Of a stretch of 36,881 nt of DNA, positions 13,363 to 36,106 are shown in pieces (within the stretch, counting starts at the first letter, position 1; every line of letters begins with the position of its first letter). The notes below the pieces were generated by a model, which saw only the letters and a list, made by a program, of their open reading frames with translations, made no database searches and had not been told where the DNA came from. The DNA comes from a virus. Where the stretch lies: the UHGV virus genome UHGV-0123951; one strand, given 5' to 3'. The position numbers were made by a program, and so were the translations under genes.

Positions 13363-13390
13363 GGCTGCCATTTGGCGGCCTTTTCTATTT
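13363..13390 (+). terminator. intrinsic terminator after the small moron ORF
   Basis: GGCTGCC-attt-GGCGGCC hairpin then TTTTCTATTT. Confidence 0.45.
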
Positions 13391-13494
13391 CAGGCTCTGG
13401 GAATCACCATTACTTTCACCTTTGCATAAGAGCCCAGAAGCCTGATCCTCCTTTCATCACACAGCGCCATCCGAAGAATCGGAGGTGAGAGACC

Positions 13495-15217: not shown

Positions 15218-15236
15218 GGAATCCTGTGGAGGATTT

Positions 15237-15464: not shown

Positions 15465-15481
15465 ACCCTGATGGAGAAATT

Positions 15482-21556: not shown

Positions 21557-21569
21557 GAGCACTTTCCTG

Positions 21570-22418: not shown

Positions 22419-22427
22419 GGACCATTT

Positions 22428-23639
22428 ATGTCTGAAGTAAACGATATTCTGAAAAAAGTCACGGCCAGCATTGAAGAGGCAACCGGCAAGTTCAACGCGA
22501 AAGCAGAAGAAGCAGTGAAGGAGGCGCAGAAGTCAGGCAAGTTGTCAGAAGAAACAAAGGCAGCCGTCGATAAAATGGCTTCTGAGTTCAACGCCCTGCG
22601 CGAAGCAGAAAAAACGCTGAAGGCAGCGATGGGCGAACTGGAGCAACATGTCGCCCAGATGCCGCTGGCAAACGCGAAGCATGTTGTGGAATCAATCGGT
22701 CAGCAGGTCATCTCTGCTGAAGCTCTGAAAACCTTTGCCTCCGGCGTGGAAGGTGGCAAACGTATCAGTATCCCGGTTAAGGCCGCACTGACTTCTGCGG
22801 ATGTGCCTGATGGCGTCGTCGAACCCCAGCGAATTCCGGGCATTGATACAGCACCGAAACAGCGCCTGTTCATCCGCGATCTGATTGCGCCTGGCCGCAC
22901 TTCCTCCCCGGCTATTTTCTGGGTGCAACAGACAGGCTTTACCAACAAAGCGAAGGTGGTTCCTGAAAATACTCAGAAACCATACAGCGATATTGAGTTT
23001 ACGCCAAAAATCACGGGCGTCAGCACCATCGCTCACCTGTTCAAAGCCTCAAAGCAGATCCTGGATGACTTCGCACAGCTGCAGTCAACCGTTGATGCCG
23101 AAATGCGCTACGGACTGAAGTACGCGGAAGAGCAGGAAATTCTCTTCGGTGACGGTACCGGTGTACATCTGCATGGCATTGTTCCTCAGGCGTCAGCGTT
23201 TAACCCGGCGTTTACTGTTGAACAGCAGAGCAGTATTGACGATCTGCGTCTGGCAATGCTGCAGGCGCAACTGGCGCGCTTCCCTGCATCCGGTCACGTT
23301 CTTCACTTCATCGACTGGGCGCGGATCGAACTGACAAAAGACAGCCTGGGCCGCTACATCCTGGCTAACCCTGCAGCGCTGACTGGGCCGACGCTGTGGG
23401 GCCTGCCGGTTGTTGCCACTGAAGCGGCAGCCTTCCAGGGTAAATTTTTGACTGGTGCTTTCAACGCTGGCGCGCAAATCTTCGACCGCGAAGATGCGAA
23501 TGTCGTTATCTCCACGGAGAACGCCGACGATTTCGAGAAAAACATGATCACCATCCGTTGCGAGGAACGTCTGGCGCTGGCCGTCAAACGCCCTGAAGCG
23601 TTCGTGTATGGCTCCTTCAGCACCGGCGCAGGTAGCTGA
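22428..23639 (+). CDS. major capsid protein (HK97 fold)
   Basis: 403-aa ORF after the protease; followed by an intrinsic terminator. Confidence 0.85.
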   Translation: MSEVNDILKKVTASIEEATGKFNAKAEEAVKEAQKSGKLSEETKAAVDKMASEFNALREAEKTLKAAMGELEQHVAQMPLANAKHVVESIGQQVISAEALKTFASGVEGGKRISIPVKAALTSADVPDGVVEPQRIPGIDTAPKQRLFIRDLIAPGRTSSPAIFWVQQTGFTNKAKVVPENTQKPYSDIEFTPKITGVSTIAHLFKASKQILDDFAQLQSTVDAEMRYGLKYAEEQEILFGDGTGVHLHGIVPQASAFNPAFTVEQQSSIDDLRLAMLQAQLARFPASGHVLHFIDWARIELTKDSLGRYILANPAALTGPTLWGLPVVATEAAAFQGKFLTGAFNAGAQIFDREDANVVISTENADDFEKNMITIRCEERLALAVKRPEAFVYGSFSTGAGS

Positions 23640-23647
23640 TAAACACT

Positions 23648-23670
23648 GCGGCCTGCGGGCCGCTTTTTTT
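23648..23670 (+). terminator. intrinsic terminator after the major capsid gene
   Basis: GCGGCC-tgcg-GGCCGC hairpin then T7. Confidence 0.65.
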
Positions 23671-23681
23671 AGGTCAGAAAA

Positions 23682-24008
23682 ATGCTTGATCAAAATGTGG
23701 TGAAACAGCACTGCCGCATTGATACCGACTTTACCGGTGATGATGCCTTGTTGACTTTATACACTGGCGCGGCGGCGCGTTACGTTCAGACATGGACGCG
23801 GCGAACGCTCTATGAAAAAGAAGACAGCCCTGGTTACGTAGACGACCCTGCCCCGATTCTACTGAATGATGATGTTAAAGCGGCCATGTTACTGCTGATA
23901 GGTCACTGGTATGCCAACAGAGAATCAGTGGTCGTTGGTCAGACCGTTGCAGAGGTTCCGTTTGCAGTTGAAGCCTTGCTGCAGCCATACCGAATTTACG
24001 GGGTGTAA
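23682..24008 (+). CDS. head-tail connector protein (gp6-like)
   Basis: Size and position after capsid gene. Confidence 0.65.
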   Translation: MLDQNVVKQHCRIDTDFTGDDALLTLYTGAAARYVQTWTRRTLYEKEDSPGYVDDPAPILLNDDVKAAMLLLIGHWYANRESVVVGQTVAEVPFAVEALLQPYRIYGV

Positions 24009-24071
24009 ATATGGCCTGTTCCGGGTGCGCGCAGAGGCGCGAATGGATAAAAAAGTGGGCGAAAATAGCTT

Positions 24072-24284
24072 ATGAACGAGCAACTGGTAAAGGAACTAAT
24101 AGCGGCGCTGCGGGAACAAACCGCAGCTCAGAGAGAACAGACGGAAGCGATAAGCCGCCTGGCTGAATCAAACGCAGCTCTGTGTGATGTCATTATCCAG
24201 TCACTGGCCGAAGATGAAGAAATTGATACTACTTCATTAGGTGATGAGCGACCCGTTTACTTGAGTCAAAAACCCAGGGGGTGA
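24072..24284 (+). CDS. hypothetical protein (70 aa)
   Basis: Track ORF; weak RBS. Confidence 0.4.
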   Translation: MNEQLVKELIAALREQTAAQREQTEAISRLAESNAALCDVIIQSLAEDEEIDTTSLGDERPVYLSQKPRG

Positions 24285-24285
24285 T

Positions 24286-24618
24286 ATGCAAGCCGGGAAA
24301 TTGCGTCACAGGGTTACCCTGCAGGCGCCGGTAAAAGAACAGAACCCTACAACGGGAGCCGTAATTAATACCTGGCGCGATGTCGCAACTATCTGGGCCG
24401 AAATATCCCCCTTATCAGCACGGGAGTTTATAGCGGCCCAGGCATCACAGGGCGAAATAACAACGCGCATAACAATTCGTTACCGTGCAGGTATTACCCG
24501 AAAGCACCGTATTCTCTTTCGTGGCTCAGTATACAACATTGAGGGCGTGCTCCCGGATCCGAAAAGTGGTCGTGAATATCTGACGCTTCCTTGTTCTGAG
24601 GGGGTAAACGATGGCTGA
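24286..24618 (+). CDS. head closure / head-tail adaptor protein
   Basis: Size and position; GGGGGTGA RBS. Confidence 0.65.
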   Translation: MQAGKLRHRVTLQAPVKEQNPTTGAVINTWRDVATIWAEISPLSAREFIAAQASQGEITTRITIRYRAGITRKHRILFRGSVYNIEGVLPDPKSGREYLTLPCSEGVNDG

Positions 24619-25150
24619 TAGTGTTGAAGTAAACCTTACAGGCCTCGAATCACTGCTTGGAAAAATGGAGGCTGTTTCCGACGTTACCCGAAATAAAGCC
24701 GGGCGTTCTGCGCTGCGTAAGGCTGCGAATATAATCAGGGATCGCGCCAGAAGTAACGCAGCCAGAGTTGATGATCCCCTCACCAAAGAGGCGATATATA
24801 AAAATATTGTCGCCAGCTTCAGCAGCAAACAATTCCGCAGGACGGGTGATCTGGCATTTCGTGTTGGGGTAATGGGCGGCGCCAGTCAGTATGCAAACAC
24901 AAAGGCTAACGTCAGGAAAGGCAGGGCTGGGAAAACGTTCAAAACACCGGGCGATAAAAGCAATCCTGGCGGCGATACCTGGTACTGGCGTTTTCTCGAA
25001 TTTGGAACCGAACATGCCGCCGCAAAGCCTGTACTGCGACCAGCGATGAATGGTGTTGATACCGCAGTAATCAGCGTTTTCGCTGAAGAAATGGAAAAAG
25101 CTATCGATCGCGCAGTTAGGCGTGCCGACAAAAAAGGAACGACAGCATGA
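24611..25150 (+). CDS. HK97 gp10-like tail-component protein
   Basis: Size and position in the head-tail joining module. Confidence 0.65.
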   Translation: MADSVEVNLTGLESLLGKMEAVSDVTRNKAGRSALRKAANIIRDRARSNAARVDDPLTKEAIYKNIVASFSSKQFRRTGDLAFRVGVMGGASQYANTKANVRKGRAGKTFKTPGDKSNPGGDTWYWRFLEFGTEHAAAKPVLRPAMNGVDTAVISVFAEEMEKAIDRAVRRADKKGTTA

Positions 25151-25512
25151 TTGCTCCAGTTTTTTCCGTCTGTTCGACAGACCCGAAAGTAAAAGAGCTA
25201 CTTGGTGCCAACCCGGTCAGGCTTTATCCGTTTGGCATGCATGATGATGACCTTGTGTATCCCTACGCGGTCTGGCAGAACGTGGGCGGTGAACCTGAAA
25301 ATTACCTGAGTCAGAACCCTGACATCGACCGTTATTCCATTCAGGTGGATGTGTATGGCGACACCGATGAAGATGCTCTTGCTGTGGCGAGAGCATTGCG
25401 CGATGTCATTCAGCGTAAAGCTTACATTACCCGCTGGGATGCACAGGGCAGAGACTCTGCAACCCTCAAATACCGATATTCCTTTGACGTTGACTGGCTG
25501 GTCAACCGATAG
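25147..25512 (+). CDS. tail completion / terminator-like protein
   Basis: 121-aa ORF coupled to upstream stop, directly before the major tail gene. Confidence 0.55.
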
Positions 25513-25532
25513 CTTAAACCACTCACATCACA

Positions 25533-25554
25533 CCGGCTATAAGCCGGTTTTTTT
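25533..25554 (+). terminator. intrinsic terminator (attenuator) upstream of the major tail gene
   Basis: CCGGCT-ata-AGCCGG hairpin then T7. Confidence 0.5.
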
Positions 25555-25570
25555 ATATCCGGAGATGACT

Positions 25571-26062
25571 ATGTCAGTAGTGACTCAAGGCACTCAACTT
25601 TTTGTGCTCGCGAATGGTGTCGTGAGCGAAATCGAATGTATTACGGCATTTTCACCAGGCGGCAGCCCTGCAGATCAGATTGATGATACGTGCCTCAGTG
25701 AACGCAACACCCGAAAATATAAAAAGGGTCTGCGTACACCGGGGCAGGCGACGGCCACGCTTAACGCTGATCCACAGAATGCCAGCCATCTGATGCTCAG
25801 TAATATGGCTGAATCAAATGATCAGAGTGATGTGACATTTGCGATCGGATGGTCCGATGGCGAGTCTAAACCAACAACGGGGAGTTCCCCTGATGCTGTT
25901 GATGGACTGATTCTACCTTCAGATCGTACCTGGTACGTGTTCAAAGGTTATGTTTCCGACTTCCCGTTTGACTTCCAGGGTAATACCGTCGTGCAGACGT
26001 CTGCTACCATCCAGCGCTCTGGCCAGGGGGCATGGATTCCTAAAGAACAGCCAGGCAGTTAA
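25571..26062 (+). CDS. major tail (tube) protein
   Basis: Start moved to MSVVTQ (GGAG 6 nt upstream); the track start at 25349 overlaps the preceding gene. Confidence 0.65.
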
Positions 26063-26114
26063 TTAAACGCGGGGATCATACCCCGCCTCATTGATGTTTA
26101 TACCGGAAAACTAC

Positions 26115-26495
26115 ATGAAACTGACTCTTGATACGCTGAAAAAAACAGGTGCTTTTACTGGTCGTCCTGTTGAGAAAGAAATTAAATGGAAAGGTGCTGA
26201 CGGGGAAGAACATATTGCCATAACTTATGTTCGCCCTCTGGGTTATCACACTGCCACGTCTGATGTTCTCGCCGGTCTTGGCAAGATTGATGGCGTTGCT
26301 GGTCGTATTGCAGCATCAATCTGTGATGAAGACGGGCATCAGGTGTTTACCGTTGCTGATGTGACCGGCGAGGCTGATCCGGAACGTGGCGCACTGGATG
26401 GCAATCTTACAGTGGCTTTGCTGGTGGCTATTCAGGAAGTTAACGATCTGGGAAAGACGGACTCAGCGCAGAAGACGAAATCTGGTGCGAACTAG
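26115..26495 (+). CDS. tail assembly chaperone (lambda G-like)
   Basis: Small acidic protein before the tape measure gene; contains the slippery heptamer near its 3' end. Confidence 0.65.
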   Translation: MKLTLDTLKKTGAFTGRPVEKEIKWKGADGEEHIAITYVRPLGYHTATSDVLAGLGKIDGVAGRIAASICDEDGHQVFTVADVTGEADPERGALDGNLTVALLVAIQEVNDLGKTDSAQKTKSGAN

Positions 26496-26782
26496 TCCTT
26501 AACGGGATTGGTGGACGTACCATTTCAGAAGCGCAGGAACGCCTTAGCTTTCTTGAGTTTCAGCAGTGGGTTCAGTATCGTCAAAAATACGGAAACCTGA
26601 ACCCTATGATGCGGACGGAATGGGGAGCAGCGTTGATTTCTTCTGTGCTGGCTAATGTTAATCGCGGTTCAAACACACCGGCATTCAGCATTACTGATTT
26701 CGCCCCTCACATAGCAGCGGTAGAGCGCGTCGCCGCTAACGAACCAATCAGCCTGCAGGAAGCGATGAGGACGTGGAATTGA
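26115..26782 (+). CDS. tail assembly chaperone -1 frameshift fusion product (G-T-like)
   Basis: G GGA AAG heptamer at 26450-26456 in the zero-frame register; the -1 frame is open from there to TGA 26780-26782 (110 codons, translated by hand). Confidence 0.55.
26450..26456 (+). promoter_or_regulatory. programmed -1 ribosomal frameshift slippery site GGGAAAG
   Basis: Identical to the lambda G/GT slippery heptamer, in the required register. Confidence 0.6.
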
Positions 26783-26844
26783 AAAGTAGAATTTATTAGA
26801 AACGCTTTCCTTGCTACCCTATCTAAAAACAAGGAGATCAAGGA

Positions 26845-27564
26845 ATGGCTTTAATTAAATGCAAAGAGTGTGGAGAACAGGTATCTGATAAGGCCGCATC
26901 ATGTCCAAAGTGCGGAGCTCCCATAGCAAAAAAAAACAAAGGCCCATCGGGATGTATGATGGTGTTTTTTATTTTTGTAGGGGTTCTTATCCTTCTTTTG
27001 TTTATTGGCAAAGTAAGCAATAAAAAAGAAGCACCTAGCCAAACAGTGGGTAGCACTCAGGTAAGCACTGATAAGTTGAAAAATGATGTCGTAAAAGAAG
27101 TAGAGGTAAAAAAAGAACCAGTTACAGTTATTAACTGGCATAACCAACCCACGAAAGATAGCGTTACTGGTGAGGTTGGGGAGATTTTTTATAATACATC
27201 GAAAAACCATGTTAATTTCCCATTCCCATACAACGTTGATGGTGGTTCTGTACTCAACTTGGTTTTCCGCAAAAGAAAACAAGGTACTGATGCCTATGTC
27301 GTGATATCTAAAGGTCAGATTGTATGTGGTTACTCAGATTGCTCAATAAGAACGAAGGGCGATAACGGAAAGGTAAAAATCTGGACTGCAAGTAGTGAGG
27401 CGTCTGGAAGATCAGATATGATTTTTCTTGATAACCCACAGTCTTTCGAAAAATATATCAAGAGCAATAAAAAAATCACTATTGGAGTGACATTTTATCA
27501 ATCTGGCGAACAGGGGTTCGATTTTGATGTTTCAGATTATCCAGAGCAAGCAAAGAAAAAATAA
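26845..27564 (+). CDS. zinc-ribbon, single-pass membrane protein (239 aa), AT-rich moron
   Basis: N-terminal CxxC-x12-CxxC, hydrophobic helix (MMVFFIFVGVLILLLFIG), ~180-aa Lys-rich C-terminal domain; AGGAGA RBS. Confidence 0.6.
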   Translation: MALIKCKECGEQVSDKAASCPKCGAPIAKKNKGPSGCMMVFFIFVGVLILLLFIGKVSNKKEAPSQTVGSTQVSTDKLKNDVVKEVEVKKEPVTVINWHNQPTKDSVTGEVGEIFYNTSKNHVNFPFPYNVDGGSVLNLVFRKRKQGTDAYVVISKGQIVCGYSDCSIRTKGDNGKVKIWTASSEASGRSDMIFLDNPQSFEKYIKSNKKITIGVTFYQSGEQGFDFDVSDYPEQAKKK

Positions 27565-27599
27565 AAGTAATATTTACACTATTTAATAAGCATTAAAAT

Positions 27600-27624
27600 G
27601 CCTCGCTTTGCGGGGCTTTTTTTT
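27600..27624 (+). terminator. intrinsic terminator after the zinc-ribbon moron
   Basis: GCCTCGC-tttg-CGGGGC hairpin then T8. Confidence 0.6.
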
Positions 27625-27638
27625 ACCTGGAGGACAGC

Positions 27639-30113
27639 GTGGCAAGTAAATCATTAGGTACATTAACGATAGACTTAATTGCCAAAGTTGGCGGCTTTGT
27701 TGGCGGCCTAAGCCAGGCTGAAAGGGCATCGCAGAAATGGCGAAAACAGGTTCAAGAGGATGCAAAATCTGTAGCTGTTGCATTCACAGGGGCAGCAACT
27801 GCAGCAAGCGCCGCTGCTATTGGCGTAGGTGTGGCTGGATACAACCTGTTAAAAAACACCTCCAGGCAAATTACTGAGTCTGACCGTTGGGCTAAGTCGC
27901 TCAACATGTCTACTCAATCATTACTTGCTTGGCAGTATGCTGCAGAAAAAGCAGGTGTTTCAGGCGATCAAATGGCTGATATTTTTAAAGATATCGGAGA
28001 TAAAATTGGTGACTCGGTACTGAATAAATCAGGTGAGGCAGTAGATGCATTGGATGCACTCGGTTTATCAGCTAAAAAATTATCGAGTGAATCGCCGGAT
28101 AAGCAACTTTTAGCCATAAGTGATGCGCTAAGCAAGATTAAAACAAACGCTGAAAAGACTACTATTCTTGAAAGCTTGGGTAACGATCTCTCTAAGTTGC
28201 TTCCTTTGCTTGATCAGGGCGGTGATAAATTACAAAAATATATTAAGGCTGCGAAAGAATTTGGCGTAGCACCAGATGATACCGATATAGAAAGTCTCGT
28301 AAAAGTTAATTCAATCTTTGAGGATATGGAAAACCAAGTTAAAGGGGTTAAGATTGAATTATCAGCTGGATTAGCAAAGGTTGACCTTTCTAACCTGCAG
28401 AAATCAATTAGCGACATGGGTGATGTATTTAAAGACCATGAAGTTATCAAAGGTATCACCAACCTTGTTAGTGGCGTGGTCGACCTCGCTACCTGGCTTG
28501 TTAAGGTTGGAGCGGAAGCAGGAAAACTCATCGATCTTTACAAAGGGGGACAGGCAGTAGGGGAGAATGCATCTATAGAGGAAATTGATCGTCGCATAAG
28601 AAACCTTGATGCAGATTTAAATGACGAAGGTTTTCTTGCAGATTTCAACAGATTAGGAATGGATGTGGAAAGGAAACGGGCTGAACGATCAGAGCTTGAA
28701 CGCCGCCGAGCAATCCTTAAAGCAGGAAATAACCTACCTCTATATCCAGCAACCATAGGTAATTATTCTTCATCTAAAACAGATTATGGTCTTGACGCAG
28801 GAGAATCAAACGGGAAATTAAAAACTGATACTTCAGCAAAAAAAATTGAATCAGCTTTTAAATCAATGGAGACAAGTTACCTCCGTCAGATTGCTCTCAT
28901 CGACACCACTGGAAAGAAAAGCGCAGAAGTTACTGAACAGCAAAAACTACAATTTGATATCGCTGACGGAAAGCTAAATGGACTTAATGAAACACAGAAG
29001 CAACGCCTTGAACAACTGGCTACAGAGGTTGATCGCCTAAATTCCGTAAAAAAGGCAAACGAGGAAAATCTAAAACTGGCTGAATACGTATCGAACCTTC
29101 AGCGTGAAAATGCGAATTCAGCGGCTTCTCTTGATGCAGATGTCATTGGCGCAGGACTCGGTGATAAAGCCCGCGAAAGGATGCGTGAGCAACTCAGCAT
29201 TGAACGCGAATTTCTGGAGAAGCGAGAGGATTTGCAACGGCGGTATCAGAGCGGAGATATTCGTAGCCAAGAGGATTATGACCGTTATAACCAGGAACTG
29301 GACAAAGCGCTTGCTGAGCGACTCGATAAATACCGTTCTCATTATGACCAACTGGATGAGTTACAGGGAAACTGGCTGGCAGGGGCTCAGAATGGTCTGG
29401 CTAACTGGGTAGATACTTCCAGCGATTATTACACTCAGGTATCAGATTTAGTCGGTAACACCCTTGATGGCCTGGTGGATAACATGGCTGATGCCCTCAG
29501 TGGTAATAAAGCTGACTGGGCAAGTTGGGCGAACAGTGTGTTGAATGAGCTGCAGAAAGTCTTGCTCAGGGCAATTATGGTCAACACGCTTAAATCTGCT
29601 GGTGATAGCGGTTGGTTTGGTTCACTTGGTGGGATGTTTGGTAGTTCAGTGGCTGGCGCAGCATCCGCTGGCGGTGCAACACCGTCCGGAGCTTATACAG
29701 GTGCGGCATCTCAATTGAAATTCGCCAAGGGTGGTGTAATGGATTCGCCTGATCTTAGTCGTTTCCGTAATGGCGTCGTGAACAGTCCGACGATGTTTGC
29801 TTTCGCCAAAGGTGCGGGGCTCATGGGAGAAGCTGGTCCTGAAGCTATTATGCCCCTTACGCGTACTGCTGACGGTAACCTCGGTGTTCGTATGGTGGAT
29901 GACACGGTTTCTTCTGTTGGCGGTGGTGGTGCTCAGCTCCAGCAAACTATTCAGCAGCATTTCTCTATTTCCGGTAACGGAGATGCCGCACTGAAGCAGG
30001 CTATGCAGGAAGCTGCACGACAGGGTGCTAATGATGGTGCAAAACAGGCGCGTAAGGATTTGCTTCAGGATTTCTCTAATAGAGGACAGGCAAGGCGATT
30101 ACTTGGCGTGTAA
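27639..30113 (+). CDS. tail tape measure protein (824 aa), GTG start
   Basis: Long coiled-coil-rich ORF after the G/GT chaperone; GGAGGA RBS before GTG. Confidence 0.85.
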   Translation: MASKSLGTLTIDLIAKVGGFVGGLSQAERASQKWRKQVQEDAKSVAVAFTGAATAASAAAIGVGVAGYNLLKNTSRQITESDRWAKSLNMSTQSLLAWQYAAEKAGVSGDQMADIFKDIGDKIGDSVLNKSGEAVDALDALGLSAKKLSSESPDKQLLAISDALSKIKTNAEKTTILESLGNDLSKLLPLLDQGGDKLQKYIKAAKEFGVAPDDTDIESLVKVNSIFEDMENQVKGVKIELSAGLAKVDLSNLQKSISDMGDVFKDHEVIKGITNLVSGVVDLATWLVKVGAEAGKLIDLYKGGQAVGENASIEEIDRRIRNLDADLNDEGFLADFNRLGMDVERKRAERSELERRRAILKAGNNLPLYPATIGNYSSSKTDYGLDAGESNGKLKTDTSAKKIESAFKSMETSYLRQIALIDTTGKKSAEVTEQQKLQFDIADGKLNGLNETQKQRLEQLATEVDRLNSVKKANEENLKLAEYVSNLQRENANSAASLDADVIGAGLGDKARERMREQLSIEREFLEKREDLQRRYQSGDIRSQEDYDRYNQELDKALAERLDKYRSHYDQLDELQGNWLAGAQNGLANWVDTSSDYYTQVSDLVGNTLDGLVDNMADALSGNKADWASWANSVLNELQKVLLRAIMVNTLKSAGDSGWFGSLGGMFGSSVAGAASAGGATPSGAYTGAASQLKFAKGGVMDSPDLSRFRNGVVNSPTMFAFAKGAGLMGEAGPEAIMPLTRTADGNLGVRMVDDTVSSVGGGGAQLQQTIQQHFSISGNGDAALKQAMQEAARQGANDGAKQARKDLLQDFSNRGQARRLLGV

Positions 30114-30154
30114 GCATTATTAATATTCATTAAGCCGAAAGGCGGGAGACTGTT

Positions 30155-30484
30155 ATGACTTTAGAACAACGAATTGAGTCACTTGAATTTAAAGTAGGGT
30201 TTCCGAAAGAAAATGGAGTAAGAATTTCTTTCGGAGAAAATTTGGCCATGTCATCTACGCAGCGCATTGGTAGTAACGTGTCGGTGAAAATTGGCAAAGC
30301 AACCGTAGCTACTATCCAGTACAGCGAAGACTTAACGCCAGAACTTACCCTGGAAGGGTACAATCAGCGGGCGAAAGGGCATGCTCAAAATGTTGTCACG
30401 AAGATTATTGAAGCGGCCACAAATCAGGCCGCGAATGGTTTTTATACCTTAAAATTAGGAATTAAGACTGATGCAGTCCTTTGA
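30155..30484 (+). CDS. hypothetical protein (109 aa), AT-rich
   Basis: Track ORF with GGGAGA RBS; 3' end overlaps a convergent minus-strand ORF. Confidence 0.45.
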   Translation: MTLEQRIESLEFKVGFPKENGVRISFGENLAMSSTQRIGSNVSVKIGKATVATIQYSEDLTPELTLEGYNQRAKGHAQNVVTKIIEAATNQAANGFYTLKLGIKTDAVL

Positions 30485-30677
30485 GATTGCCAACCCATTG
30501 CTGAATCGATGGGGAATCAATCTGTGATAACTCCTTAATGATTTGCTGGCGACCCTCATTGTCTAATTTCAAAGCTACGCTAAGAAGGATCATTTTAATA
30601 TCATTTAATTCATCAGCGACTTCCTTCAGGCTTTCTTTTTTTGAATTAAATTGAACTTTTGCACTTACTTCGTCCAT
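30462..30677 (-). CDS. hypothetical protein (71 aa), AT-rich, antisense to the late operon
   Basis: Track ORF with AGGAAG RBS on the minus strand. Confidence 0.4.
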   Translation of the reverse strand: MDEVSAKVQFNSKKESLKEVADELNDIKMILLSVALKLDNEGRQQIIKELSQIDSPSIQQWVGNLKGLHQS

Positions 30678-30841
30678 ATAACTTCCTTATCCAGAGGTAA
30701 TCAGCCATCCCTCCTAATCAGAAAACGCCAGTGTCCCACCACTGACGGGCTGAGTAACAACCATAACCAGGTATGTAAATCAGTAACATCCTGACAAATG
30801 ATCAGTAGCGCCAACGTGCGCAGAATAATGCAGGAGAATCT

Positions 30842-31435
30842 ATGGCTGTACTCGAATGGCCGGAAGATGTCTGTCCCGCGTCGCTGACCTGGCGACCGGA
30901 GAGTAATACCAAAACTTTTCGTTCCCCCTTCAATGGCTCATCGCAGACAGCTCGCTTTCCCGGCACCCGCTGGGTATGTTCCCTGACCTTTAATAACCTG
31001 ACGGACGAAAAATCCAGGCGTATTGATGCCCTGGTGGCTTCCCTCGATGGTGAGTATGGCAGGGTAAAAGTTCGCGACTGGGGGAGAAGTGGCAGAGCGC
31101 CAGCGGGCGTGCCCGTTGTTGATGGAGCTAATCAGACAGGGACCCAGATTCAAAGCAAGGGCTGGGCGCCGGGAACAGTTGTGCTCAGACAGGGCGATTA
31201 TTTCACAGTTAACGATGAACTGAAGATGGTTACAGCCGACGTGACGAGCGCGGCGAACGGTACCGCAATGATTGCCTTTGCGCCGATGTTACGTAGCTCA
31301 CCACCTGCTAATGCTGCCATTGAAGTTGCGAAACCCTACGGCATTTTCAAACTGAAGGATAACCAGCAGGGCGCCGGTAACCGTGTGCCGGGTGTTTTTA
31401 CCAGTTACACGCTGGAGCTTGAGGAGGCATTTTAA
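30842..31435 (+). CDS. minor/distal tail protein (197 aa)
   Basis: Position after tape measure; AGGAGA RBS. Confidence 0.65.
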   Translation: MAVLEWPEDVCPASLTWRPESNTKTFRSPFNGSSQTARFPGTRWVCSLTFNNLTDEKSRRIDALVASLDGEYGRVKVRDWGRSGRAPAGVPVVDGANQTGTQIQSKGWAPGTVVLRQGDYFTVNDELKMVTADVTSAANGTAMIAFAPMLRSSPPANAAIEVAKPYGIFKLKDNQQGAGNRVPGVFTSYTLELEEAF

Positions 31436-32019
31436 TGCTGTATTCCCCTTTTTCTGACTCGATGGTGGACTGGTTATCCCGCGACAGGGTGACAGTCGCG
31501 ATCGCCGCCAATATTCAGTTTGAATCCGGTACCGTCTATGTGCATTCCGGTACAGGAACGCTGGTTCTTGGTGGCTATGTTTATTACGGCATGGGCCGCA
31601 TGGGTTCTGTTGATGATGCCAGTGAAACCAGCACGACCAGCCCCACGCAGGTCAAAATGACCCTCTCGGGTCTGGATATGGCCCTCTTTGCAACCACGCT
31701 GAATGAGCGATGCGTGGGCAGAAATGCCGAAATCTACCTGGTGGCCATGGATGATAACGGTGTTGTCCATGTTGCTGATCTCCTGTTTAAAGGGCGGGTA
31801 TCCAGTACGGGGGCGACCGCTGGCGGGACGAACGCCCTGCAGTACACCATCAGTAATATTTTTGAAGACTGGCAGCGTCCTTTCCCCGATCGTTATACCG
31901 ATGAATCGCAGCAGGCCGCTTATCCCGGCGACCGCATATTCCGGTATGTGGCGCAGATGTCTGAACGTTCGATTTACTGGGGCAGTAAAAAAGATGCACC
32001 AGGATTTACCTATAAGTGA
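31435..32019 (+). CDS. minor tail protein (194 aa)
   Basis: Translationally coupled to the upstream tail gene. Confidence 0.6.
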   Translation: MLYSPFSDSMVDWLSRDRVTVAIAANIQFESGTVYVHSGTGTLVLGGYVYYGMGRMGSVDDASETSTTSPTQVKMTLSGLDMALFATTLNERCVGRNAEIYLVAMDDNGVVHVADLLFKGRVSSTGATAGGTNALQYTISNIFEDWQRPFPDRYTDESQQAAYPGDRIFRYVAQMSERSIYWGSKKDAPGFTYK

Positions 32020-32025
32020 GGAAGC

Positions 32026-32424
32026 ATGAAGCATCCGGACTGGCATAACAGATTAATCACTGTAATAAGGGCCGCTGAAAAGCGGCCTTTTTTATGGGGC
32101 AGTCATGACTGCTGCCTGTTCGCGGCGGACTGTGCTCAGGCCATGTGCGGCGAGGATTTTGCAGCAGGCTGGCGCGGAACCTACGACAGTGAGCATGGGG
32201 CGAAAAAGGCGATATTGCGCGGTGGCGGTTCGCTTGAAAAGGTGTTGGCCCGTTATCTCGACGAGGTGCCTGTGAAACTGGCGCAGCGTGGGGATATTGC
32301 CGTGATTGAAAATGCCGGGGCGCGATGTGCCGGGGTGGTGTATTCCGGCGTTGTGTGGGTGCCTGGCGAAACTGGTCTTGTCAGTCTGCGGGTTAAACCG
32401 TTGAGTGTCTGGAGGGTACGTTAA
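32026..32424 (+). CDS. small tail-associated protein with Cys/His cluster, possible NlpC/P60-like peptidase (132 aa)
   Basis: WGSHDCCLFAADCAQAM motif; position in tail-tip module. Confidence 0.5.
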   Translation: MKHPDWHNRLITVIRAAEKRPFLWGSHDCCLFAADCAQAMCGEDFAAGWRGTYDSEHGAKKAILRGGGSLEKVLARYLDEVPVKLAQRGDIAVIENAGARCAGVVYSGVVWVPGETGLVSLRVKPLSVWRVR

Positions 32425-35144
32425 TGCCTGCTGCTGTTCCTATAGTTGCCACCATTGCCGCAGGTGTGGCAGCGGCAAATGAAATGTATGCCATTGCGAT
32501 GGTTATCACCGTCGCCGCACAGATTGCCACTCAGGCGCTGACCAAGACCCCATCGCTGAATTCCTACCGTGATACGTCTGAACGCAAACAGGTTCTGCGC
32601 GCAGCGGCCAGTGCCAAAACCGTTGTTTATGGTCGTTCCACATCTGCTGGCACTCTGTTCTTTTCCGAAGAGCAGGCTGGCGAACAGGATGATGGTGAAA
32701 TGTTGCATCTGGCCATTGCTCTGGCGGGGCACCCGTTATCCGGTGTGCAGACTGTCTGGCTGGGTGATGAGCCTATCAGTAGCTATCCTGAGCATGCCTT
32801 TTTCGAGGTGCACACCAACCGCCAGACGGCGGACCCTTACATGCTGGAAAACTGCCCGTCATGGAAAGAAGACATGATCGGGAAAGGGATCACCTGGCTA
32901 CGCGTATCCCTGAAGTTCAACGCTGAAAAATTCCCGGCAGGTATCCCTAACATCAAAGTAGAAAAACAGGGGCGTGCCGTTTATGACCCGCGTACCGGGT
33001 TGGCGGGTTACAGCAACAATGCGGCGCTGGTTATCCTGGACTATTACCGCAATTACCTGAAAGTGCCCGACACCGATATTCTCTGGGACCAGTTTAAGGA
33101 AGCGGCGAATATCTGTGATGAGGATGTGATTACTGGCGGTAATACCGTTGAGAAGCGCTATACCATCAACGGTGAGTTCGACCTCAGTGAAAACAAGGTC
33201 AGTATTCTGGAAGGGATGCTGGCAGCATGCGCCGGGGATGTAACGTATACCGCGGGCAAACATGGCCTTCTGGTCGGGGCTTATTATGGTCCTGCGACAG
33301 AGGTGATCACTGAGAGCCAGCTGGCCGGTGATATCGAAATCATGCCGGAAGTCTCTCAGGCGGAACGTGTTAACACTATCAAGGGGACATTTGTCGATCC
33401 GCAGCAAGGCTATACCGAAGCGGATTTCCCTTCTGTGTCTGTCAGTGAATGGGTGACGGAAGACGGCGTGGAAATATCGCAGGATATGAAGCTGCGATTT
33501 GTGACCTCTGAATTTCAGGCCCAGCGTCTGGCAGATGTGAAGTTAAAGCGCACCCGCATCGCCAGAACCATGAACGTTACGTTAAACCTGAGCGGGTACC
33601 GTTACCGCCCGGGAATGTATGTGAAGGTGAATTTCCCGTCTATCGGTATCATGAATGTTGAGATGCGGGTAACTGACTGGAAGTTCGGCGTTCAGAATGG
33701 CGTGCAACTGACGCTGAAGCAGGAAACCGCAGATGTCTGGGGCGACGCTGTTGGTAAACCGATTGAGCGGCCGCCGTTCACCCAGTTGCCATCAGGCGGA
33801 GTGGCGCAGCCGCAGAATCTGAAGTACACCGTGGAAGAAATTGGCCAGGTCGTGCAGGGCATTCTGTCCTGGCAAAACATCGGTCAGGTGGTCTACAACA
33901 AAGTGGTCATTCGCCGCAATGGTCAGATGGTGATGTCAGTCCAGGTTCCGGGGACGTTCACGCGTCTTACCGGGTTACCGAAAAATACCTACACAGCCCA
34001 CGTTATTGCTGTAAACCAGATGGGGGCAGAGTCGCCAGAAGGGTATCTGGAATTCAGCATTGAAGCCCCGCCAGCACCTTCCCATGTAGATATTGAGCAG
34101 GGCTTCTTTGCCGTCACGCTGATCCCGCGTCTGGCGGCGATCACTAATGTTTCCACGCAGTTTGATTTCTGGACTTCAGGTGAAACGAAACTACCTGATA
34201 CCTCAACAGCGACCGTGGAAGGGAATGCAAGCCGCGAAGGCATGGGAACCACATGGACAAGCAATCAGCTACAGGTTGGACATACCTATTACTGGTACAT
34301 CAGAACGGTTAACGCCTTTGGTGCATCTGGTTTTATCGAAGTTCCGGCGTTGTGCTCTATGGACACGGGCGGGCTGATTGACATCATAGATGATCAGATT
34401 CAGAACTCTGACGCGTTCCAGAATATTAAGGCCGGGGTTGATACTAACCTGGAAGGCATTATGGAAAATGCGCTGGCTAATCATGGCTCCGTTGAGCATC
34501 AGTATCAACAATATGGTGAGGTACGCGCTGATATTCTGGTCGTAAAAACCACGGTGGCTACTGCTGAGCAGGGGCTTGCTGATTTATCCACCTATGTACA
34601 GGCTCAAATAGGACCGGAAGGAAGCCTGACTTCTGCGGTCAACCAGAAAATGACGGCTGAAGTAAAAAGTGACGGAACAGCGAAAGCCTCTTACACCCTG
34701 AATATGGGCATTGTGCGAGACGGTGTTAAATACAATACCGGATTTGGCATGTCTATTGAGCCATCAGGAAACAGCTATAAATCCACAGTTGTATTTGCCG
34801 CCGATCAGTTCGGTATTTACTCCGGTAACAATCCAGGTAACTGGCAGGCTGCATTCTTTGTCTATAACGGGCAGGTATTTATTCGCAGCGCATTAATTCA
34901 GGAAGCATCCATCGATTTTGCGAAAATTACCGACTCACTTCAGTCTGCGAACTTCGTCCCCGGTGGTGGTGGGCGTGGATGGAATTTACCGAAATCTGGT
35001 AGCCCAGAATTCCATGGAAAACTCTATGCCGACAGTGGTGAGTTTGCATTTAACGGAGTGAATAACGTTACTCGCATTGACGGCAACGGGATCACTGTAA
35101 ATCTCTCGGGAGGTGGTCGCGTTGTCGTTGGACGCTGGACATAA
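32424..35144 (+). CDS. host specificity / central tail fibre protein (906 aa)
   Basis: Large ORF in the tail-tip position; start overlaps upstream stop. Confidence 0.75.
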   Translation: MPAAVPIVATIAAGVAAANEMYAIAMVITVAAQIATQALTKTPSLNSYRDTSERKQVLRAAASAKTVVYGRSTSAGTLFFSEEQAGEQDDGEMLHLAIALAGHPLSGVQTVWLGDEPISSYPEHAFFEVHTNRQTADPYMLENCPSWKEDMIGKGITWLRVSLKFNAEKFPAGIPNIKVEKQGRAVYDPRTGLAGYSNNAALVILDYYRNYLKVPDTDILWDQFKEAANICDEDVITGGNTVEKRYTINGEFDLSENKVSILEGMLAACAGDVTYTAGKHGLLVGAYYGPATEVITESQLAGDIEIMPEVSQAERVNTIKGTFVDPQQGYTEADFPSVSVSEWVTEDGVEISQDMKLRFVTSEFQAQRLADVKLKRTRIARTMNVTLNLSGYRYRPGMYVKVNFPSIGIMNVEMRVTDWKFGVQNGVQLTLKQETADVWGDAVGKPIERPPFTQLPSGGVAQPQNLKYTVEEIGQVVQGILSWQNIGQVVYNKVVIRRNGQMVMSVQVPGTFTRLTGLPKNTYTAHVIAVNQMGAESPEGYLEFSIEAPPAPSHVDIEQGFFAVTLIPRLAAITNVSTQFDFWTSGETKLPDTSTATVEGNASREGMGTTWTSNQLQVGHTYYWYIRTVNAFGASGFIEVPALCSMDTGGLIDIIDDQIQNSDAFQNIKAGVDTNLEGIMENALANHGSVEHQYQQYGEVRADILVVKTTVATAEQGLADLSTYVQAQIGPEGSLTSAVNQKMTAEVKSDGTAKASYTLNMGIVRDGVKYNTGFGMSIEPSGNSYKSTVVFAADQFGIYSGNNPGNWQAAFFVYNGQVFIRSALIQEASIDFAKITDSLQSANFVPGGGGRGWNLPKSGSPEFHGKLYADSGEFAFNGVNNVTRIDGNGITVNLSGGGRVVVGRWT

Positions 35145-35152
35145 GGTGAACT

Positions 35153-36097: not shown

Positions 36098-36106
36098 GGA
36101 AAAACT

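Follow-up and report, generated by a model that had tools for sequence, protein, structure and literature searches.

In phage HK97, gene 15 is a moron whose product acts in superinfection exclusion (Juhala et al. 2000; Cumby et al. 2012), and both the phage annotation and the literature place it in the slot between the tail assembly chaperone (G/GT) and the tape-measure protein (TMP) gene; a review gives the same location, and further describes morons as genes that differ in GC content and bring their own promoter and terminator. HK97 gp22/gp23 (a 'reverse moron') and HK022 gp22/srb(gp23) are convergent gene pairs found between I and J, upstream of J.

The stretch of DNA analysed here (the window, 36,881 nucleotides) is an HK97/HK022-like lambdoid prophage of the Citrobacter freundii complex or Salmonella, and its late operon contains a block of low GC content in which both kinds of insertion have counterparts. 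With a probability of about 0.72, that block is a composite of separately exchangeable modules, namely two moron cassettes and an AT-rich front part of the TMP gene.

The first counterpart shares with HK97 gp15 the slot between chaperone and TMP, a GC content far below that of its neighbours (0.33 for HK97 gp15, 0.38 for the moron here), an intrinsic terminator just before the TMP start, a predicted membrane protein as its product, and a late operon that is Q-antiterminated (the Q antiterminator of the window lies at 12037-12897). It differs in that gp15 is small and YebO-like, whereas the unrelated protein encoded here comprises 239 aa with a zinc ribbon, a TM helix and a predicted periplasmic beta-sandwich; in addition, no clear sigma-70 promoter was found for the gene, and its role in exclusion is putative. 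The second counterpart resembles the gp22/gp23-type pairs in being a convergent pair of small, low-GC genes directly 5' of the first tail-tip/host-specificity gene, and has in common with those of HK97 and HK022 a conserved element of ~145 nt. However, it lies between TMP and a distal tail protein of the ES18/FSL SP-016 type rather than before a lambda-type J, and its coding sequences are mostly unrelated to theirs.

HK022 resembles the window in its upstream head-tail genes (72-76% nucleotide identity, with gene order shared), but its slot holds no moron, its TMP (gp16) displays no AT shift (GC3 0.55, against 0.32 here), and its TMP C-terminus and distal tail are of the lambda M/L/K/I/J type. 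Salmonella phage FSL SP-016, whose distal tail is of the type also represented by ES18 and SPN3UB, matches the window from position 29796 on at 81-89% nucleotide identity, with distal tail proteins 93-99% identical, and the ORF in its T/TMP slot likewise encodes a zinc-ribbon membrane protein (two TM helices and a CxxC...CxxC motif). That slot protein is nevertheless non-homologous to the one described here, the reverse gene is absent, and the TMP of FSL SP-016, at 1077 aa, has a different N-terminal part.

Composition and borders of the low-GC block

The first-pass annotation had described a single block of low GC content from about 26800 to 30700, and while the drop proved real, it is composed of two troughs. 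In 500-bp sliding windows, GC is 0.37-0.44 across 26751-29250, returns to 0.48-0.52 across 29001-30000, and falls a second time, to 0.43-0.45, across 30001-31000; the head and tail genes on either side of the block lie at 0.50-0.57. Maximum-likelihood segmentation of positions 20000-36881 of the window, with models compared by BIC, placed the best breaks at 26780 and 30800 (GC 0.522, 0.429 and 0.529 in successive segments), very near the limits given in the first-pass annotation, and a five-segment model scored close behind, with values of 0.402 for 26780-29120, 0.513 for 29120-30070 and 0.410 for 30070-30800. None of 5000 shuffles of 100-bp blocks produced a 4-kb window as low as that observed (0.431; expected minimum 0.489, sd 0.005). 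Because the two troughs are separated by TMP codons of near-normal composition (~496-810), the block is not uniform.

The compositional break is significant. GC3 is 0.33 in the moron and 0.24-0.39 in TMP codons 1-500, against a mean of 0.566 in the other late genes (sd 0.067, 65 windows), which corresponds to z = -3.8. The loss of GC sits at synonymous sites: GC1 and GC2 of the TMP gene resemble those of the HK022 orthologue, for which GC3 is 0.52-0.57. Four-fold sites in TMP codons 1-495 (A.36, C.15, G.12, T.38) are close in composition to those in the moron (A.39, C.12, G.12, T.36) and unlike those in the flanks (A.16, C.30, G.28, T.25), and CTG provides 9% of Leu codons in TMP codons 1-495 versus 53% in the flanks. 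The composition common to the moron and the TMP N-terminal part (TMP-N) is consistent with a joint AT-rich history.

Chaperone G is encoded at 26115-26495 (+ strand; PF16459 in Pfam, from gene calls on identical contigs), and a T-frame ORF (PF06223), lying within 26115..26782 on the same strand, ends with a stop at 26782 that marks the left edge of the block. The segmentation break at 26780 falls on this stop codon, and homology with prophages bearing cassette B or C (see below) ends at 26776-26777. The right edge is formed by a distal tail protein gene (30842..31435, + strand; phrog_1302, PHROG E 1.5e-74), near the break at 30800; its product is 97% identical to that of FSL SP-016, and GC from this gene on is 0.53-0.55. 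Since 12-13 independent contigs and isolate genomes carry identical proteins in identical gene order, the structure of the locus is not an assembly artefact.

A moron unit in the T/TMP slot

Moron unit 1 (26783..27638, + strand; GC 0.37-0.38) fills a slot that is empty in HK022 and 10 more of the related lineages, leaving 7-28 bp between T and TMP, and that elsewhere holds either this unit or unrelated genes in its place; all of the slot occupants found possess a TM helix, a signal peptide or a lipobox. The moron gene itself (26845..27564, + strand) specifies a protein that begins with a zinc ribbon (aa 1-30; Zn_Ribbon_1 in Pfam, E 6e-7), continues through one TM helix (~aa 36-54) and a disordered linker, and carries a C-terminal beta-sandwich domain (aa 98-228) in which two cysteines are almost invariant. 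In the AlphaFold model, pLDDT is 82.8 overall and mostly 91-97 in the C-terminal domain (10-residue blocks from ~residue 101, with one block at 88), and the product is predicted to be an inner-membrane protein with its zinc ribbon in the cytoplasm and its beta-sandwich domain in the periplasm. That domain superposes on IalB (invasion-associated locus B, PDB 3DTD) with a Foldseek probability of 1.0 and E 2e-3 (TM 0.52, target-normalised; identity 13-14%; rmsd 5.2 A), and better fold matches are provided by uncharacterised phage proteins (RB16, KP15). While IalB and, by prediction, the moron product are both envelope proteins, the latter, in sequence, matches neither the IalB Pfam family nor HK97 gp15/YebO, and resembles none of the PADLOC defence models. 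Judged only from position and topology, it would most likely serve in the envelope while expressed from the prophage, for instance by excluding superinfecting phages when they inject their DNA.

A consensus promoter scan revealed no sigma-70 site upstream of the moron on the + strand. An extended -10-like motif, TGcTACCCT (26812..26820, + strand), is located ~25 nt 5' of the start codon, and its family consensus, TGnTAnnCT, has been retained 5' of homologous zinc-ribbon morons at most of 10 loci with diverged surroundings; the motif is a candidate promoter, probably a weak one. In the gap between the moron stop and the TMP start, a terminator scan identified an intrinsic terminator (GCCTCGC-TTT-GCGGGGC followed by T8; 27600..27624, + strand), at a place matching that of the annotated terminator after HK97 gp15, and homology with cassette-B prophages restarts at 27602, that is, at the terminator.

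The exact moron protein was found on 13 contigs, and homologues of 48-71% identity occupy the same slot in prophages of Enterobacter, Cronobacter and others. Moron GC is steady at 0.38-0.39 (GC3 0.33-0.35) while the protein diverges to 48% identity, in backgrounds whose flanking structural genes have a GC of 0.52-0.61 and a GC3 of 0.52-0.72; this constancy indicates that low GC alone is no pointer to a recent foreign donor.

Mosaic structure and allelic exchange in the tape-measure gene

The TMP gene (27639..30113, + strand; 824 aa, PF09718) had been described in the first pass as a mosaic, AT-rich up to about 29300, and it does combine an HK022-type front with an FSL SP-016-type end; the first-pass position is close to the compositional break, which lies at ~29120. 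HK022 TMP is matched at 67.8% identity by residues 1-751, and FSL SP-016 TMP at 52.5% by residues 432-824; the full-length protein is present at 90-100% identity in many Citrobacter freundii-complex and Salmonella genomes. The AT-shifted part (codons 1-495; 27639..29120, + strand; GC 0.40) is an HK022-type proximal module, orthologous to HK022 TMP in spite of the difference in GC3 given above, and its closest relatives outside the clade, in Enterobacteriaceae, are 76-79% identical in amino acids with a GC3 of 0.41-0.56. The C-terminal third (codons 496-824; 29121..30113, + strand; GC ~0.51), within which nucleotide homology with FSL SP-016 begins, is 81% identical to that of the Enterobacter prophage L028 and only 46% to that of HK022. 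Across loci, high identity in this third accompanies the presence of a 197-aa distal tail protein, and these codons co-vary with, and belong to, the ES18/FSL SP-016-type distal tail module.

Comparison with L028, the closest Enterobacter relative, places the discordance in the moron and the front of the TMP gene: protein identity (%) is 97 for capsid, 94 for major tail protein, 87 for G and 88 for T, then 71 for the moron, 79 for TMP1-250 and 51 for TMP251-495, and again 81 for TMP496-720, 80 for TMP721-824 and 83-86 for the distal tail. The corresponding values for successive TMP parts against HK022 are 84, 68 and 46.

The first ~400 codons (27639..28850, + strand) are allele-variable and occur in three classes (A, B and C); across ~18 loci in the Citrobacter/Salmonella lineage, every class comes with a moron of its own. 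TMP-N alleles are 89-100% identical inside a class and 75-81% across classes. Prophages 94-100% identical in the flanks carry alternative moron and TMP-N alleles in which synonymous divergence is saturated (dS 1.48-1.50 in TMP-N versus 0.23-0.40 in the flanks). Sliding nucleotide identity to L044/L047 is 50-89% within 27639..28850, 90-99% beyond it and ~94% in the flanks, and L039 (class A) and L044 (class B) are 100% identical from 28870 to 32400. The TMP-N of L048 is 99% identical to that of L047, whereas identity between the two backbones is just 77-81% upstream and over the remaining TMP (92% in the distal tail genes). The occurrence of three moron and TMP-N alleles in near-identical prophages, with a dS of 1.5 versus 0.3, establishes that cassettes were exchanged by recombination and that the locus is a recombinational mosaic. 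The allele boundary at ~28850 precedes the GC break at 29120 by ~270 bp, so these are two different junctions.

The association between moron and TMP-N is broken in other lineages: L111 and L112 share a 99% identical TMP-N and differ in their morons, L081 and L102 share a 100% identical TMP-N with and without a moron, and a 125-aa moron adjoins two different TMP-N clades. Among ~50 related loci, an occupied T/TMP slot accompanies an AT-shifted TMP front part. L017 has a moron without the shift, and L102, L105 and L082 have the shift without a moron.

A second cassette and its conserved intergenic element

Moron cassette 2 (30114..30841) extends from the TMP stop to the first distal tail gene and accounts for the second GC trough (0.41). 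It is missing in the Enterobacter relatives L029/L030, where 13 bp separate the TMP stop from the next start, and is replaced in relatives with 98-100% identical TMP, including L004, L007, L009 and L012, which have other gene pairs in its place beside an identical TMP; it is gained, lost and swapped independently of TMP. Its forward small gene (30155..30484, + strand; 109 aa, phrog_11851, PHROG E 1e-53) encodes a protein that over its first 93 aa is 86% identical to a 118-aa protein at the corresponding place in FSL SP-016, and has only its first 11 codons in common with the alternative 119-aa gene. The reverse moron gene (30462..30677, - strand; 71 aa, phrog_6806, PHROG E 8e-29), which has a strong SD (AAGGAAG), encodes a distant relative of HK022 Srb (gp23), with 25% identity over 51 aa (E 2e-4 in a small database).

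Adjoining the start of the reverse gene is the conserved intergenic element (30686..30832), which can be aligned with HK022, HK97, FSL SP-016 and prophages of Enterobacter, Cronobacter and Citrobacter. The full element was present in 91 of 120 IMG/VR pattern hits (62 distinct sequences), and in every one of the 54 copies whose flank was long enough, the element lies directly beside a minus-strand ORF of 62-127 aa. It matches no Rfam family, and contains one hairpin with compensatory changes at 4 pairs; most copies, unlike the one here, have a terminator T-run.

Assembly of the block and origin of its AT-richness

In the composite reading, the moron in the T/TMP slot comes with a terminator and probably also with a weak promoter of its own, and the first ~495 codons of TMP would be an old AT-rich allele of the HK022-type proximal TMP. 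The first ~400 of these codons, together with the moron, would form a replaceable cassette moved among backbones by homologous recombination, with its left junction at the T stop codon and its right crossover in conserved mid-TMP (28850-29120), while codons 496-824 go with the ES18/FSL SP-016-type distal tail. Cassette 2, comprising the forward small gene, the reverse moron gene and the upstream 145-nt element, is exchanged on its own.

Bacterial mutation is AT-biased, and recombination correlates with GC. The AT-richness might have arisen in place, as accessory and deeply diverged allelic DNA, which recombines little with homologues and is under weak codon selection, drifted to an AT equilibrium and escaped GC-biased gene conversion; a low-GC donor would then be unnecessary. 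This explanation, which is tentative, would account for the constancy of moron GC despite protein divergence and varied flanks, for the symmetrical rise of A and T at four-fold sites with no strand asymmetry, for the appearance of AT shifts in several unrelated TMP-N clades and in the unrelated HK97-type TMP family, and for the coincidence of the AT-shifted stretch with deep allelic divergence. However, GC3 changes abruptly, not gradually, near codon 500, a pattern that looks more like a recombination junction, and the four loci with only a moron or only the shift also argue against it.

The moron and TMP-N might instead be a co-selected pair, in which an exclusion protein blocks injection and the TMP region is acted on or spared, with alleles kept by frequency-dependent selection. 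The perfect match of moron type and TMP-N allele in the ~18 Citrobacter/Salmonella-lineage loci, despite reassorted backbones, points in that direction, as do the envelope location of all slot occupants and literature reports that gp15 fails to exclude HK97 hybrids equipped with the tail tube and TMP genes of HK022, and that changes in TMP overcome TP-J34 Ltp. Such pairing is doubtful, however, given the broken linkage in other clades and a TMP-N dN/dS of ~0.07, which provides no overall signal of positive selection; moreover, plain physical linkage over 0.1-2 kb could generate the association.

The first-pass annotation had attributed the whole of 26800-30700, accessory genes and front two-thirds of TMP alike, to recombination with a lower-GC phage lineage, taken here as a single import from a phage of a lower-GC host. 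A separate history holds for 26783 to ~29120, which is discordant with the flanks relative to both L028 and the alternative alleles, and the moron and TMP-N are alike in four-fold sites and codon usage and far from the flanks (phylogenetic discordance was found for 26845-29120). Moreover, another clade directly displays the import of a TMP from a lower-GC lineage, that of L102/L105 (GC3 0.46, background 0.61) being 92% identical to those of uniformly low-GC phages with an 841-aa TMP. A single 4-kb event is nonetheless quite unlikely: ~950 bp of near-normal GC separate the troughs, cassette 2 (30114-30841) is exchanged independently of TMP, and the moron and TMP-N are themselves separable elsewhere. 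No relative from a low-GC host was found among 185,579 species genomes, IMG/VR and GenBank phages, all relatives being from Enterobacteriaceae with a GC of at least 0.475, and the nearest outside relatives of TMP-N, described above, likewise offer no lower-GC donor. The moron retains 38-39% GC whatever its background, and three low-GC TMP-N alleles differ by 11-19% in protein within this backbone, which implies that the AT-richness is old.

Finally, a by-product of TMP amino-acid composition (a Lys/Glu/Asn-rich, coiled-coil ruler) or a metagenome assembly chimera, which a low GC2 in some TMP chunks (0.28-0.36) and the derivation of the window from a metagenome scaffold might have suggested, is refuted by the concentration of the fall in GC3 and four-fold sites, by the HK022 orthologue, similar in GC1/GC2 yet with a GC3 of 0.52-0.57, and by the recurrence of the architecture in isolate genomes and many independent contigs.

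For the composite of exchangeable modules, the AT-richness may reflect import from an unsampled AT-rich phage pool or, alternatively, a long stay as poorly recombining accessory or allelic DNA drifting to an AT-biased mutational equilibrium. The swapping of an AT-rich TMP front part between related prophages is, in itself, an already known type of phage mosaicism.

Organization of the prophage

The element is a lambdoid prophage with HK97-type head genes and a siphovirus tail, and carries a CI-like repressor gene (4108-4842, minus strand) and the antiterminator gene Q (12037-12897). The window makes up the first 36,881 bases of a metagenome scaffold of 122 kb. In the tail region, chaperone G (26115-26495) and chaperone T (ending at 26782) precede a zinc-ribbon gene (26845-27564; product of 239 aa), which a strong intrinsic terminator (27600-27624) separates from the tape-measure protein (TMP) gene (27639-30113). 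Two small genes come next, one of 109 aa on the plus strand (30155-30484) and one of 71 aa on the minus strand (30462-30677); a 165-bp intergenic region then leads to the distal tail protein (from 30842 onward). The same proteins were found in the same order on 12-13 independent contigs, many genomes of the Citrobacter freundii complex and of Salmonella enterica carry the 824-aa TMP at full length with 90-100% identity, and positions 23001-30192 display 98.2% nucleotide identity to C. portucalensis A60; an assembly artefact is excluded by these contigs and genomes. A megablast search of E. coli genomes with positions 26500-30900 returned just a 73% TMP match and short matches to the intergenic element, and the host is therefore not E. 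coli.

Composition of the low-GC region

Sliding-window GC content was 0.50-0.57 outside the region and 0.37-0.44 over 26751-29250, returned to 0.48-0.52 at 29001-30000, and dipped a second time (0.43-0.45) at 30001-31000. The maximum-likelihood segmentation of 20000-36881 with the best BIC placed breaks at 26780 and 30800 (GC 0.522, 0.429 and 0.529 for the three segments), almost exactly where the first-pass annotation had drawn the edges of a low-GC block by eye (26800 and 30700), and 5000 shuffles of 100-bp blocks never produced a 4-kb window as low. That annotation had described one block of about 4 kb; the drop was borne out but its uniformity was not, as a five-segment model of nearly equal score resolved two troughs (26780-29120 at 0.402 and 30070-30800 at 0.410) with 48-52% GC between them (29120-30070 at 0.513).

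The drop acts at synonymous sites. GC3 is 0.33 in the zinc-ribbon gene, 0.36-0.38 in the two small genes beyond the TMP, 0.24-0.39 across TMP codons 1-500 and 0.42-0.47 in the remainder of that gene, against a mean of 0.566 (sd 0.067) for the other late genes, such that the compositional break is significant (z = -3.8 for the front part of the TMP, hereafter TMP-N). Amino-acid composition as its cause was ruled out by the behavior of GC1, GC2 and GC3, by four-fold sites and by the HK022 orthologue. Base frequencies at four-fold sites (A, C, G and T, respectively) are.16,.30,.28 and.25 in the flanks;.39,.12,.12 and.36 in the zinc-ribbon gene;.36,.15,.12 and.38 in TMP codons 1-495; and.19,.19,.18 and.44 in TMP codons 496-824, while the CTG share of leucine codons is 9% in TMP-N versus 53% in the flanks. 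The zinc-ribbon gene and TMP-N thus have a single, A/T-symmetric, AT-rich signature in common.

Several other parts of the window depart from the background. Chaperone G has a mildly low GC3 (0.41), and its four-fold sites (only 73) are T-rich (T 0.47) with a positive GC skew, a profile closer to that of TMP codons 496-824 than to the signature of the zinc-ribbon gene and TMP-N. A trough at 12750-13500 (GC 0.43-0.44), directly downstream of Q, contains small open reading frames at 12910-13146 and 13085-13327 (the latter with a weak DUF2513 match); lambdoid phages classically carry their PR' morons at this site. Shallower dips (GC 0.43-0.47) occur at 1500-2750, with an RdgC-family gene (1951-2868, minus strand); at 4000-4500, with the CI-like repressor gene; at 15000-15500, with small open reading frames preceding a 485-aa gene; and at 34250-35000, within the C-terminal part of a 906-aa host-specificity protein.

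Two classic moron slots

The two troughs are the two classic moron slots of HK97 and HK022. In the HK97 annotation a ‘moron product’ (gp15) and then a terminator lie between the tail chaperone and the TMP, and a convergent pair, the ‘moron product’ gp22 and the ‘reverse moron product’ gp23, lies just before J; HK022 carries gp22 and srb (gp23) in the pre-J slot and leaves the chaperone/TMP slot empty. A 2012 review from the group that characterised gp15 gives its slot, a deviant GC content, a private promoter and terminator, and superinfection exclusion as its function.

The Juhala/Hendrix definition of a moron comprises extra DNA, deviant composition, and the possession of its own terminator and promoter. 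Unit 1 (26783-27638) is extra DNA, the gap between T and the TMP being 859 bp versus 7-28 bp in HK022 and 10 other lineages, and so is unit 2 (30114-30841), where 728 bp separate the TMP stop from the next start versus 13 bp in two Enterobacter relatives (L029 and L030). Their GC contents are 0.38 and 0.41, respectively, with flanks at 0.52-0.53. The terminator of unit 1 is a 7-bp GC-rich stem followed by T8; for unit 2, a plus-strand terminator (stem and T6) ends most copies of a 145-nt intergenic element, and is missing from the window copy, which has no T-run. A scan for sigma-70 consensus promoters gave no match on the correct strands for either unit. The sequence TGnTAnnCT at 26812-26820, located 25 nt upstream of the start of the zinc-ribbon gene and kept in homologous loci, is a candidate extended -10 promoter for that moron. 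The 71-aa protein of unit 2 is a distant relative of HK022 Srb.

At two related loci (L004 12517-12876 and L009 13311-13670) the TMP is identical, and a 119-aa gene replaces the 109-aa gene, with which it has only its first 11 codons in common. The C-terminus of the 119-aa protein (…QIHQDFISRGPLRRLLD) resembles that of the TMP (…KDLLQDFSNRGQARRLLGV), and its gene may be a remnant or mimic of the tape-measure C-terminal end.

The 145-nt element (30686-30832 in the window; also L001 13972-14137 and L035 10976-11142) separates the start of the reverse moron from the first distal tail gene. Copies occur in HK022, HK97 and FSL SP-016 and also in Citrobacter, Enterobacter and Cronobacter prophages, though the genes on either side differ. 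Full copies occur in 91 of 120 IMG/VR pattern matches (62 distinct sequences), and all 54 testable copies adjoin a minus-strand open reading frame of 62-127 aa. One hairpin within it has compensatory substitutions in 4 of its pairs, UA giving way to CG in 12 sequences, and two more helices are both invariant. Rfam returned no match at E <= 1 for the window region or for the HK97 and HK022 copies. Known small RNAs were considered and rejected: AgvB and AsxR map to the PR' moron site; PasA, PasC and PasD are located near Q and the lysis genes; and PasB comes from a structural operon, but the element does not contain its probe sequence (alignment by eye). The element could be a promoter or leader for the reverse moron, a plus-strand sRNA, or a recombination linker.

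A mosaic tape-measure gene

The TMP is lambda-H-like, on the basis of a match to PF09718 (Tape_meas_lam_C; E 3e-18, residues 577-651) and its placement after G/GT, and its length fits a siphovirus tail. Its residues 1-751 display 67.8% identity to the HK022 TMP, and the head-tail genes upstream display 72-76% nucleotide identity to HK022; from 29796 onward, the window DNA is 81-89% identical to that of FSL SP-016, a Salmonella phage with an ES18/SPN3UB-type distal tail. Protein identity to HK022 falls from 84% (TMP residues 1-250) to 68% (251-495) and 46% (496-720). L028, an Enterobacter prophage, has the backbone of the window (identities of 97% in the capsid, 94% in the major tail protein, 87% in G, 88% in T and 83-86% in the distal tail), versus values of 71% for the moron, 79% for TMP residues 1-250, 51% for 251-495, 81% for 496-720 and 80% for 721-824. 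Codons 1-495 therefore differ in history from everything to their right. The switch, at about nucleotide 29120, is the point where GC content rises, and the proposal in the first-pass annotation that the TMP gene is itself mosaic was thereby sustained. Across loci, the C-terminal third of the TMP is highly identical where a 197-aa distal tail protein is present, a co-occurrence that fits a requirement that the TMP C-terminus match the tail tip.

Exchange of the moron together with the front of the TMP

IMG/VR prophages that have the window’s backbone (protein identity of 95-98% in the major tail protein, 88-99% in the C-terminal part of the TMP and 87-98% in the distal tail protein) contain three alternative slot contents: (A) the 239-aa zinc-ribbon protein (the window, L012 and L036-L043); (B) a 95-aa Cys-rich protein with a signal peptide (L044-L046); and (C) a 125-aa secreted protein (L047-L050). 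Each slot type has its own TMP-N allele, with nucleotide identities of 89-100% within and 75-81% between types. Homology between A and B ends at 26777 (the T stop codon) and restarts at 27602 (the terminator), and that between A and C restarts at 27640 (the TMP start); along the TMP, identity between types is 50-89% to about 28850 and 90-99% thereafter. Synonymous divergence in codons 1-400 is saturated (dS 1.48-1.50, versus 0.23-0.40 in flanking genes), with dN/dS of about 0.07 (the L047 MTP and G genes being left out of that calculation for an indel offset). The alleles are therefore old and imported, and rapid evolution in place was ruled out by the same dS values.

Movement of the cassette was observed directly in two comparisons. 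L039 (type A) and L044 (type B) are 100% identical from 28870 to 32400, and the type C allele of L048 is 99% identical to that of L047, on a backbone whose identity is just 77-81% upstream and in the remaining TMP, and 92% in the distal tail genes. In this lineage, the moron and the first 400 or so TMP codons have been swapped as one cassette. That linkage is broken elsewhere: L111 and L112 have TMP-N sequences that are 99% identical and different morons, and L081 and L102 have identical (100%) TMP-N sequences, one with a moron and one without.

The moron protein and other occupants of the slot

Homology searches detected 282 homologues of the zinc-ribbon moron, including relatives at 30-35% identity in environmental Proteobacteria and other phyla. 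An AlphaFold model of the 239-aa protein, built upon a 46-sequence alignment (mean pLDDT 82.8), comprises an N-terminal zinc ribbon with four of four cysteines invariant, one predicted transmembrane helix (residues 36-54), a disordered linker, and a confident beta-sandwich (residues 98-228) with two nearly invariant cysteines. Bartonella IalB (3DTD) is similar to the latter domain (E 2e-3; TM 0.52 on normalisation to the target), but uncharacterised phage proteins (from RB16, KP15 and others) are closer to it. Three forms of the family occur in the slot: full length; zinc ribbon and transmembrane helix alone (58-88 aa); and signal peptide with the C-terminal domain alone (173-203 aa).

Like gp15, the protein is a predicted inner-membrane protein encoded between the tail chaperone and the TMP; its architecture differs from the gp15/YebO type, and Pfam, PHROG and PADLOC scans for such homology returned only zinc-ribbon and unknown-function families (nothing meaningful from the PADLOC models, and unknown-function families only from PHROGs). 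All other occupants of the slot are predicted envelope proteins: the 95-aa and 125-aa secreted proteins, lipoproteins of 227, 124 and 119 aa, and two-helix transmembrane proteins of 154-158 aa. Judging from position and topology, and by analogy with gp15, the zinc-ribbon moron most likely has an envelope function expressed from the prophage, which would probably be a block to DNA injection by related siphophages.

Two further observations concern this slot. In FSL SP-016 (L002 4613-4948) it encodes a 112-aa hypothetical protein, not homologous to the window moron, that again combines membrane segments and a zinc ribbon (two transmembrane helices, then CPFC…CKHC), and its architecture may be convergent with that of the window protein. 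In the IMG/VR prophage L039, a 1-nt length difference frameshifts the N-terminal zinc ribbon of the moron, the longest open reading frame encoding 220 aa with an unrelated N-terminus; this copy is either a pseudogene or a sequencing error.

Source of the AT-richness

The first-pass annotation had attributed the region to recombination with a lower-GC phage lineage that brought its accessory genes along. Recombination was upheld, as was the foreign composition of a segment with an accessory gene in it, but a single block and an identified lower-GC lineage were not. The four-fold signature common to the moron and TMP-N speaks for a shared foreign history. Searches of GenBank phages (megablast, blastn and tblastn), 185,579 one-per-species genomes and IMG/VR found no low-GC donor, and no relative in Morganellaceae, Pasteurellaceae or Vibrio. 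The nearest TMP-N sequences outside the clade (76-79% protein identity, GC3 0.41-0.56) belong to phages of Citrobacter, Pseudocitrobacter and E. coli, and the three low-GC alleles form one clade whose members are already 11-19% apart in protein sequence. The zinc-ribbon moron itself has a GC content of 0.38-0.39 and a GC3 of 0.33-0.35 in every lineage, despite protein divergence to 48% and flanking structural genes that range in GC3 from 0.52 to 0.72. The failure of these searches to find a donor, the age of the alleles and the constancy of moron composition all weigh against a simple scenario in which a low-GC host was the recent donor.

Transcription-associated deamination downstream of the moron was ruled out, as the four-fold gains of A and T are symmetric. 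In the moron and TMP-N this symmetry speaks against damage that is strand-specific and linked to transcription, and favors a common AT-biased regime under which both have equilibrated. Elsewhere, the TMPs of L102 and L105 are a genuine import from a phage lineage of lower GC, with GC3 of 0.46 in a background of 0.61 and 92% identity to uniformly low-GC phages. A clade with TMPs of 840-842 aa and a slot without a moron (L054, L057, L060-L075, L019 and L013) has uniformly lower GC content (GC3 0.40-0.46 in the TMP and flanks), and some of its members reside in Citrobacter genomes; the TMP of L102 and L105 is of this clade.

Slot occupancy and TMP composition across related phages

The association of composition with slot occupancy was surveyed in 21 loci from genomes and 80 from IMG/VR. 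Where the gap between T and the TMP is at least 345 bp, GC3 of TMP codons 1-495 lies 0.10-0.32 below that of flanking structural genes, with L017 as the sole exception; where it is 7-28 bp, the shift is mostly -0.07 to +0.05, with six exceptions (L025, L077, L079, L082, L102 and L105) at -0.09 to -0.15. After crude dereplication, means were -0.20 for 34 occupied groups versus -0.04 for 19 others (Mann-Whitney p = 3e-8, a statistic that still contains phylogenetic non-independence). The shift is one-sided. In 20 moron-bearing lineages, GC3 minus that of the flanks is -0.03 for the head-closure protein, -0.04 for the gp10-like protein, +0.02 for tail completion, -0.07 for the major tail protein, -0.08 for G and -0.03 for T; in successive hundreds of TMP codons from 1-100 through 701-800, it is -0.21, -0.26, -0.22, -0.23, -0.14, -0.09, -0.08 and -0.04. 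The upstream genes are thus shifted by 0.08 at most, versus 0.21-0.26 in the first 400 TMP codons. In 15 moron-less lineages all bins are within +/-0.07 of flank GC3. In the unrelated HK97-type TMP family, HK97 and all distinct relatives tabulated among 80 loci have an occupied slot and AT-shifted first 600-700 codons, the last 300 or so codons being like the flanks; every locus tabulated carries a slot gene. No description of this association was found in the literature.

Flanking TMP sequence may have been transferred repeatedly along with morons. The pattern may instead reflect AT drift within a recombination-poor island of divergence, or selection that ties an exclusion protein to its TMP target. 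The tape-measure protein is thought to form the DNA-injection conduit. A 2024 paper on SieA reports that the tail tube and TMP genes of HK022, when swapped in, allow escape from exclusion by gp15, and that exclusion by Ltp was overcome through TMP changes. In one prophage lineage, each moron type is bound to its TMP-N allele in a discrete and deeply diverged haplotype, and these haplotypes move from backbone to backbone. A bolder reading, to which we would give about one chance in five, is that gp15-type slot occupancy is tied to AT-rich first 400-700 TMP codons across HK97/HK022-like tail modules, the moron and TMP-N constituting a co-selected locus of exclusion protein and injection-conduit target with balanced alleles, whose AT-richness would record long-term suppressed recombination rather than foreign origin.

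Implications

The low-GC block consists of two morons in known slots and the AT-rich, recombinationally exchanged front of a mosaic TMP. Textbook lambdoid mosaicism, with morons in HK97/HK022 slots and a two-module TMP, accounts for the anomaly, which is thereby an ordinary one; further work might be worthwhile on the association of slot occupancy with the AT shift and on the discrete haplotypes of moron and TMP-N. The constancy of the moron’s low GC content across backgrounds cautions that low-GC accessory DNA in a phage is no proof of a recent low-GC donor. The T/TMP slot is a hot spot with at least seven unrelated envelope-protein genes (zinc-ribbon/transmembrane, secreted, lipoprotein and two-helix transmembrane), and its occupants are candidates for factors of superinfection exclusion or lysogenic conversion in prophages of Citrobacter, Salmonella, Enterobacter and Cronobacter. 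A front part of the TMP that travels with morons, or is compositionally marked by them, provides a testable link between exclusion genes and the injection-conduit protein.
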